Of a stretch of DNA of 64,000 nt, positions 54,466 through 55,803 are shown one piece after another (the stretch's first letter is position 1; each line of letters starts with the position of its first letter). The translations under genes were made by a program, and so were the position numbers. This DNA is from Escherichia coli (GTDB taxonomy: Bacteria; Pseudomonadota; Gammaproteobacteria; Enterobacterales; Enterobacteriaceae). Under the pieces are notes generated by a model that saw only the letters and a program-made list of their open reading frames with translations, was not told where the DNA came from and did no database searches. The stretch lies in the NCBI RefSeq assembly GCF_003334815.1, contig NZ_QOWO01000003.1; one strand, given 5' to 3'.

Positions 54466-55803
54466 ATGATGTATCGCATCAGAAATTGGTTGGTAGCGAC
54501 GCTGCTGCTGCTGTGCACGCCGGTGGGTGCCGCGACGCTCTCTGATATTCAGGTTTCTAACGGTAATCAACAGGCGCGGATAACGTTGAGTTTTATTGGC
54601 GATCCTGATTATGCGTTTAGCCATCAAAGCAAACGCACCGTGGCGCTCGATATCAAACAAACGGGCGTGATTCAGGGACTGCCGTTGTTGTTCAGCGGCA
54701 ATAATCTGGTGAAGGCGATTCGCTCTGGAACGCCTAAAGATGCACAAACGCTACGGCTGGTGGTCGATCTTACCGAAAACGGTAAAACCGAAGCGGTGAA
54801 GCGGCAGAATGGCAGCAATTACACTGTCGTCTTTACGATTAACGCCGATGTGCCGCCACCGCCTCCTCCGCCGCCCGTGGTTGCGAAACGCGTTGAAACG
54901 CCTGCGGTTGTCGCACCGCGCGTCAGCGAACCGGCGCGCAATCCGTTTAAAACGGAAAGTAACCGCACTACGGGTGTTATCAGCAGTAATACGGTAACGC
55001 GTCCGGCAGCGCGCGCGACGGCTAACACTGGCGATAAAATTATCATCGCTATTGATGCCGGACACGGCGGTCAGGACCCTGGCGCTATCGGCCCCGGTGG
55101 TACGCGGGAGAAAAATGTCACCATCGCCATCGCGCGTAAATTGCGTACTTTGCTCAATGACGATCCGATGTTTAAAGGCGTTTTAACCCGTGACGGGGAT
55201 TACTTTATCTCGGTGATGGGGCGCAGTGATGTGGCACGTAAGCAAAACGCCAATTTCCTCGTGTCGATTCACGCTGATGCCGCACCGAACCGCAGTGCGA
55301 CTGGCGCTTCCGTATGGGTGCTCTCTAACCGTCGCGCCAACAGTGAAATGGCCAGCTGGCTGGAGCAGCACGAGAAACAGTCGGAGCTGCTGGGTGGGGC
55401 GGGTGATGTGCTGGCGAACAGTCAGTCTGACCCCTATTTAAGCCAGGCGGTGCTGGATTTACAGTTCGGTCATTCCCAGCGGGTAGGGTATGATGTAGCG
55501 ACCAGTATGATCAGTCAGTTGCAACGCATTGGCGAAATACATAAACGTCGACCAGAACACGCCAGCCTTGGCGTTCTGCGCTCGCCGGATATCCCATCAG
55601 TACTGGTCGAAACCGGTTTTATCAGCAACAACAGCGAAGAACGTTTGCTGGCGAGCGACGATTACCAACAACAGCTGGCAGAAGCCATTTACAAAGGCCT
55701 GCGCAATTACTTCCTTGCGCATCCGATGCAATCTGCGCCGCAGGGTGCAACGGCACAAACTGCCAGTACGGTGACGACGCCAGATCGCACGCTGCCAAAC
55801 TAA
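54466..55803 (+). CDS. amiB: N-acetylmuramoyl-L-alanine amidase AmiB
   Basis: ORF trimmed to [22 protein letters not shown] (445 aa); signal peptide, eight-proline linker, amidase_3 domain. Confidence 0.9.

Follow-up and report, generated by a model that had tools for sequence, protein, structure and literature searches.

Introduction

The proline-rich region of TonB and the hinge of OmpA are proline-rich rigid spacers of periplasmic or envelope proteins. The run of prolines in the Escherichia coli amidase AmiB that is considered here is like them in forming a proline-rich link between two modules whose length varies by species; however, the TonB and OmpA spacers are longer mixed repeats (Glu-Pro/Lys-Pro, Ala-Pro), whereas that of AmiB is a pure run of 5 to 10 prolines that opens a non-repetitive linker. 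Short polyproline motifs can also act at the level of translation, and the stall at the CadC motif is said to have a regulatory use, reportedly described by Ude et al. in 2013. To our knowledge the run in AmiB has no regulatory use.

Consecutive prolines stall the ribosome and elongation factor P (EF-P) relieves the stall, as set out in three studies of the factor (PMC5811046, PMC4140641, PMC5021804). Among the proline runs of E. coli, the eight prolines of amiB are the longest, and a dramatic ribosome-footprint peak coincides with them in the wild type (PMC4402525, a 2015 paper in NAR); the run itself, where it lies and the pausing of ribosomes on it have therefore already been published. The amiB tract resembles EF-P stall motifs such as the CadC PPP in that it consists of consecutive prolines, is found in a host with EF-P, EpmA and EpmB and has a published pause in the wild type (PMC4402525), but it has eight prolines where two or three are usual. 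Polyproline motifs of E. coli are enriched at domain ends and are undepleted in inter-domain linkers (PMC5811046). Like the inter-domain motifs of that study (Qi et al. 2018), the AmiB run lies a few residues past the end of a domain and is gained or lost between E. coli strains, although amiB itself was not found in the text of the paper or in its text supplements.

A further comparison is with trinucleotide microsatellites and contingency loci. The amiB tract shares with these a change in length by three bases, but its repeat is imperfect at third bases and goes undetected as a tandem repeat; moreover, in contrast to contingency loci, all of the alleles that we fetched keep the reading frame, and they follow recognisable strain groups. 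What we add here is a census of E. coli alleles, evidence for conservation with variable length across the Enterobacteriaceae, an apparent restriction of the run to that family, and a demonstration that the constraint acts at the level of the protein. These results will not surprise a specialist, and the tract opens no new question.

Results

The octaproline tract of amiB

The window, that is, the whole stretch of 64,000 nucleotides of E. coli DNA that was analysed, contains amiB at 54466–55803 on the + strand, where it codes for 445 amino acids plus a stop codon. The ORF, RefSeq and Pfam all identify the product as the N-acetylmuramoyl-L-alanine amidase AmiB. The ORF shares 100% identity with the amiB genes of K-12 strains, a match to amiB was found in 5,426 of 5,426 complete E. 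coli genomes, and the RefSeq name AmiB was attached to every match listed. In the regions that we fetched, tsaE and mutL lie on either side of it, and the window shows the K-12-like order tsaE-amiB-mutL; the next gene, mutL (55813–57660, + strand, from the ORF and RefSeq), starts 9–10 nt past the end of amiB.

The earlier note had claimed that amiB carries eight consecutive proline codons, and the sequence and reading frame bear this out. The tract, CCGCCACCGCCTCCTCCGCCGCCC, occupies window positions 54853–54876 on the + strand, has GTG on both sides and is in frame with the 445-residue ORF. Its codons, CCG CCA CCG CCT CCT CCG CCG CCC, are translated as PPPPPPPP, residues 130–137 of AmiB. A run of this length is far beyond chance, because the window, both strands included, is expected to hold about 4e-5 runs of eight CCN codons and the longest CCN run in 200 shuffles of the window was 3–5 codons. 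The corresponding expectation for P8 in a proteome of 1.35 million residues is about 2e-5. The amiB P8 is also the sole run of at least four prolines in a real coding frame within the window; PPPP translations at 37315–37326 and 7076–7087 (both + strand) are noncoding, lie opposite ampC and dcuB and have no significance.

Several other features of the tract were considered and rejected. An antisense ORF at 54819–55046 on the − strand (75 amino acids), in which Gly8 mirrors Pro8, is situated wholly within amiB and is unsupported. For an RNA element at the tract, a permissive Rfam search of 53500–56500 returned only a chance-level match elsewhere (E = 0.7), and the predicted fold of 54823–54906 had no extra stability compared with shuffled sequences (z = +0.36). 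A special choice of codons was likewise discounted: CCC is rare in the tract (2%), yet CCC before C is avoided in the rest of amiB too. Across 81 Enterobacteriaceae sequences, the frequency of CCC was 1.0% in the tract and 2.5% elsewhere in amiB when the next base was C, and 10.8% when it was not. This bias is one of sequence context in general, which avoids C5 homopolymers, and is not a property of the tract.

The proline run is the first element of a predicted disordered linker

We next describe the position of the run within the protein, for which we used Pfam and an AlphaFold2 (AF2) model of AmiB built with 44 homologues (mean pLDDT 81.7). On reading the sequence, residues 1–22 (54466–54531, + strand) form a probable signal peptide with a presumed cleavage site at its end, and the AF2 model places a helix at residues 2–15 and the first AMIN strand at residue 24. 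The AMIN domain comprises residues 24–127 (54535–54846, + strand) and is matched by Pfam PF11741 at residues 27–112; in the model it has eight strands over residues 24–127, the last of them at 118–127, with pLDDT 85–96. The Amidase_3 catalytic domain covers residues 192–418 (55039–55719, + strand; Pfam PF01520 at 194–413, E = 4e-48), with its first modelled strand at residue 192 and pLDDT above 90 over most of its length.

Between these domains lies a linker, residues 128–191 (54847–55038, + strand), that is predicted to be disordered from the AF2 model and from indels between species. It has no secondary structure in the model, and pLDDT is 36–51 across residues 131–190. According to the model, the proline run is the first element of this linker of about 64 residues and is located 3 residues past the last AMIN strand. 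The Pfam boundaries and the AF2 model thus agree with the earlier placement of the run between the AMIN and amidase domains. The run has the attributes expected of an inter-domain linker, in that two folded domains flank it, model confidence is low and its length varies among orthologues. The low AF2 confidence at the prolines fits a stiff or a floppy stalk alike.

The linker is indel-rich across species. In Escherichia whittamii, a 10-residue tandem duplication occurs right after the proline run. AmiB variants of 414 or 420 residues are found in E. coli and Shigella; in these, the distal part of the linker is shorter by 25 or 31 residues within the stretch spanning residues 150–182 (about 54913–55011 in the window), and P8 is kept.

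Tract length varies by whole codons within E. coli

To define length classes we used a 171-nt query around the tract, which matched all 5,426 complete E. coli genomes; this query was chosen because queries of about 71 nt (28-base word) miss alleles with multiple SNPs. It matched 4,558 genomes at at least 95% identity, 866 at 90–95% and two at 80–90%. Among 60 evenly spaced rows, matches with at least 97.6% identity had the length of the query throughout and a single row, at 97.1%, fell 3 nt short of it. All sampled rows in the 90–95% and 80–90% bands were six bases shorter. Individual alleles were then resolved with allele-specific queries of 71–74 nt and with fetched examples.

By this means, uninterrupted P8 was assigned to about 82% of genomes, and the eight-codon class as a whole to about 83%. 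The interrupted eight-codon allele accounts for about 1.4% of the 5,426 genomes, seven codons for about 0.6%, six for about 15.6% and five for about 0.4%. The exact K-12 71-mer, which encodes V-P8-V, was present in 1,599 genomes, and most of the remaining eight-codon genomes (for example O157:H7, O111 and O104:H4) have A-P8-V or synonymous variants of it. The interrupted allele V-P5-S-P2-V was found exactly in 74 genomes and A-P7-V exactly in 30, an O145 strain being one example of the latter. Six-codon genomes mostly carry A-PPSPPP-M (697 exact matches), with about 150 together having A-P6-V, V-PPSPPP-M (Nissle), A-PPSPPP-V or an E. albertii-like V-P6-V; the shortest allele, V-P5-V, is carried by about 21 genomes.

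PPSPPP is therefore common, occurring in about 13% of E. coli genomes, and its listed carriers include O25:H4, ST131, Nissle, NC101 and NGF1, all of which we take to be phylogroup B2 strains. Runs longer than eight were absent from the sampled rows. The fetched alleles included no frameshifted ones; all were in frame, with linked flanking substitutions. In an evenly spaced sample, most of the variation in the length of the amiB gene was due to indels in the tract. Counting the run across E. coli, as the earlier note had proposed, therefore gave a variable length of 5 to 8 codons rather than an invariant one. Since about 13% of E. coli carry PPSPPP, and some other species have P5 or interrupted runs, eight prolines are not required.

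Three database entries with amiB sequences had apparent labelling problems. SCPM-O-B-9504, labelled E. coli, has an E. albertii-like amiB tract with 88.8% identity; a MAG labelled 'Collinsella sp.' has a contig of 1,060 bp with the PPSPPP allele of E. coli amiB; and a contig of 'Chryseobacterium sp. 18061' contains an 80%-identical amiB of the Enterobacteriaceae type.

The tract is not a true microsatellite

The earlier note had also described the tract as slippage-prone, and this claim holds with qualifications. In its favour, the length varies by whole codons (5–8 in E. coli, 5–10 in the Enterobacteriaceae); against it, the repeat is imperfect and no frameshift alleles were among those fetched. 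Tandem Repeats Finder returned no rows for the tract at a minimum score of 30, and perfect trinucleotide repetition within the tract extends to no more than two units in the window sequence and to 1–4 units across the 81 Enterobacteriaceae sequences, with 2–3 in most. The tract thus has the length polymorphism within a species that is typical of a microsatellite but not the perfect tandem repeat, and it is not a true microsatellite. A fair statement, judged from the alleles compared, would be that in-frame codon gain and loss have been frequent on an evolutionary scale, with neither rapid switching nor switching by frameshift in evidence; the tract is slippage-prone on that time scale but not in the sense of phase variation.

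The AmiB signal peptide contains a leucine run encoded by a perfect (CTG)4 at 54502–54513, which is better suited to slippage than the proline tract is. One codon of this run is missing in strain CUVM53. In strain M15, a 36-nt duplication in amiB has copied the hydrophobic core together with the presumed site of cleavage.

Prolines are conserved across the Enterobacteriaceae while synonymous positions vary

We compared one genome from each of 80 Enterobacteriaceae species together with the window, giving 81 sequences. In 81 of 81 a proline run is found directly 3' of a conserved FTI[ND]AD-x. The longest uninterrupted run is most often eight prolines (32 sequences), with seven and six in 14 sequences each, five in 12, nine in five, four in two, and three and ten in one sequence each. 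Positions 1–5 of the run are proline in 80–81 of the 81 sequences, and the third-base entropy is 1.2–1.7 bits. No sampled species keeps fewer than five prolines although third positions are nearly randomised, which shows that selection acts on the amino acids. We conclude that the constraint is on the protein and not on a DNA repeat, and that the number of prolines has drifted between 5 and 10 across the Enterobacteriaceae by in-frame gain and loss of whole codons. Citrobacter clusters mostly have A-P8-VVAKR, like most E. coli, and this sharing of A-P8 suggests that it is the ancestral state in E. coli.

For more distant orthologues, a search of 1.84 billion representatives was used, from which 150 were listed and thirteen aligned. 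Twelve of these, with about 68% identity and below, do not have a proline run there; the remaining one, with 79% identity, has a shortened PPPPSAP. As the more distant orthologues examined do not have the run, it lies outside the core amidase mechanism, and on the basis of these alignments it is an innovation of the Enterobacteriaceae. The nearest orthologue without the run has two C-terminal LysM domains, which E. coli AmiB lacks, and several of the other more distant orthologues are similarly long (520–640 aa); AmiB of the Enterobacteriaceae has the run and no LysM.

Ribosome pausing at the run and the EF-P pathway

The prediction of the earlier note that P8 would be a stall site is supported, as regards the pause, by the published footprint peak in the wild type (PMC4402525). 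Stall motifs comprise at least three consecutive in-frame proline codons, and amiB has eight CCN codons. Neither a pause score nor a protein level for amiB in cells mutated in efp was found in the accessible texts and supplements on EF-P (Elgamal 2014, Qi 2018, Hersch 2013, Elgamal 2016), and amiB is not on the short list of genes that are down in both SILAC and RNA-seq in PMC5021804. From general EF-P biology we infer that EF-P limits the pause at the amiB run.

EF-P and its modification pathway are encoded within the window. Coordinates from a collinear K-12 record were carried over with an offset of +111 and confirmed by translation, and the RefSeq annotation of that record places efp (elongation factor P) at 34211–34777 on the + strand. 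The gene for the EF-P beta-lysylation enzyme, epmB, is at 33141–34169 on the − strand, and epmA, encoding EF-P-(R)-beta-lysine ligase, is at 41155–42132 on the + strand. From the same record, cadC, with PPP at residues 120–122, is at 18908–20446 on the − strand.

Discussion

A probable hinge at the start of the AmiB tether

The explanation that we favour, and regard as probable, is that the run is a conserved protein-level hinge that opens a disordered tether, the EF-P-limited pause being mainly a tolerated cost. The octaproline would open a disordered tether of about 64 residues leading from the septum-targeting AMIN domain to the catalytic domain. A polyproline-II helix has a length of about 0.31 nm per residue. 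Given the chemistry of oligoprolines, the likeliest form of the run is a short and stiff stalk in the polyproline-II conformation, about 2.5 nm long, that projects the tether away from AMIN, and a hinge of this kind would stiffen the first 1.6–3.1 nm of the path from AMIN to the catalytic domain. In the P. aeruginosa FtsEX-EnvC-AmiB system, the AMIN domain has been proposed to relocate via a flexible linker (PMC10214136), and for this reason the geometry of the tether is plausibly functional. At the level of translation, the literature shows that the run slows the ribosome in the wild type, and EF-P, EpmA and EpmB would keep this pause bounded. In a low-abundance protein the pause would be mainly a tolerated cost, although it may also throttle expression.

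Conservation of the prolines alone fits selection on structure or selection on the pause and cannot separate the two. If the pause itself were selected, a stall after synthesis of the AMIN domain might buy time for Sec targeting, or might throttle AmiB with EF-P activity. The footprint peak is strong even in the wild type (PMC4402525), the run begins 3 residues past the AMIN domain, Qi et al. propose that polyproline motifs, which are enriched shortly past the ends of domains, are timing devices (PMC5811046), and proline identity has been kept despite synonymous scrambling. We nonetheless think this unlikely: PPP already stalls, so pure timing leaves the mode of eight unexplained, the number of prolines varies between 5 and 10, PPSPPP is both common and tolerated, and the more distant AmiB orthologues examined have the AMIN and amidase domains in the same arrangement yet not the run. 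Furthermore, AmiB would fold in the periplasm after export, and folding of AMIN in the cytoplasm would not be obviously useful. Very little credence is due to the proposal that the run is a regulatory brake, whereby a stall under limiting EF-P would uncouple transcription from translation, Rho would terminate and mutL-miaA-hfq expression would be lowered. It is true that the mutL start is only 9 nt beyond the amiB stop, and that in reporter constructs loss of EF-P leads to Rho-dependent loss of expression downstream of polyproline motifs (PMC5021804). However, some ten internal promoters in the amiB-hfq superoperon feed the downstream genes independently (PMC12249760), amiB and mutL are absent from the candidate tables and supplements of PMC5021804, and the region has neither unusual RNA structure (z = +0.36) nor a significant Rfam match. 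In addition, a Rho-loading site would be poor in G, whereas G makes up half of the third bases of the tract.

The variation in length bears on two further explanations. Five codon-length classes in E. coli (8, 7, 6, 5 and interrupted), and a range of 5–10 across species, all in whole codons, are what might be expected of a hypermutable contingency repeat that switches length rapidly by replication slippage. Such a repeat is nevertheless highly improbable here, given that Tandem Repeats Finder reports no repeat, that the longest perfect run is two units and at most four in any species, and that all fetched alleles are in frame. The alleles also have linked substitutions in strain groups (PPSPPP in ST131/Nissle/NC101, P7 in O145), and 1,599 genomes share the exact K-12 71-mer. 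Variable run length would equally suit the view that low-complexity sequence has expanded neutrally within a disordered linker and does nothing specific there, as would the poor conservation of the remaining linker, in which deletions of 25–31 residues are tolerated. Against this, the first five positions are proline in 80–81 of 81 sequences with third bases near saturation, which would be unexpected of an unconstrained tract, and natural variants with linker deletions retain P8; we accordingly give the neutral explanation scant weight. The protein-level hinge is the explanation that we retain.

Significance of the natural alleles

A more speculative extension, which we consider improbable, is that the length of the run heritably tunes the dependence on EF-P. 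The stall imposed by A-P8, the ancestral state that is also found in Citrobacter and other Escherichia, would then be long and EF-P-sensitive, while the B2-like strains (ST131, Nissle, NC101), in which the run was shortened and interrupted to PPSPPP, would have partly uncoupled AmiB output from EF-P activity. PPSPPP might possibly also uncouple the output of mutL-miaA-hfq through polarity. Were the proposal true, E. coli lineages would differ in their cell-separation and mismatch-repair responses to translational stress.

Whichever explanation holds, the amiB tract is a natural extreme case for the study of EF-P, being the longest run in E. coli and situated in a non-essential cell-separation enzyme that is easily scored. 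Its natural alleles allow runs of 3, 5, 6, 7 and 8 prolines to be compared. Finally, efp, epmA, epmB, cadC and the longest proline run of the species all fall within 36 kb, which is probably a coincidence.
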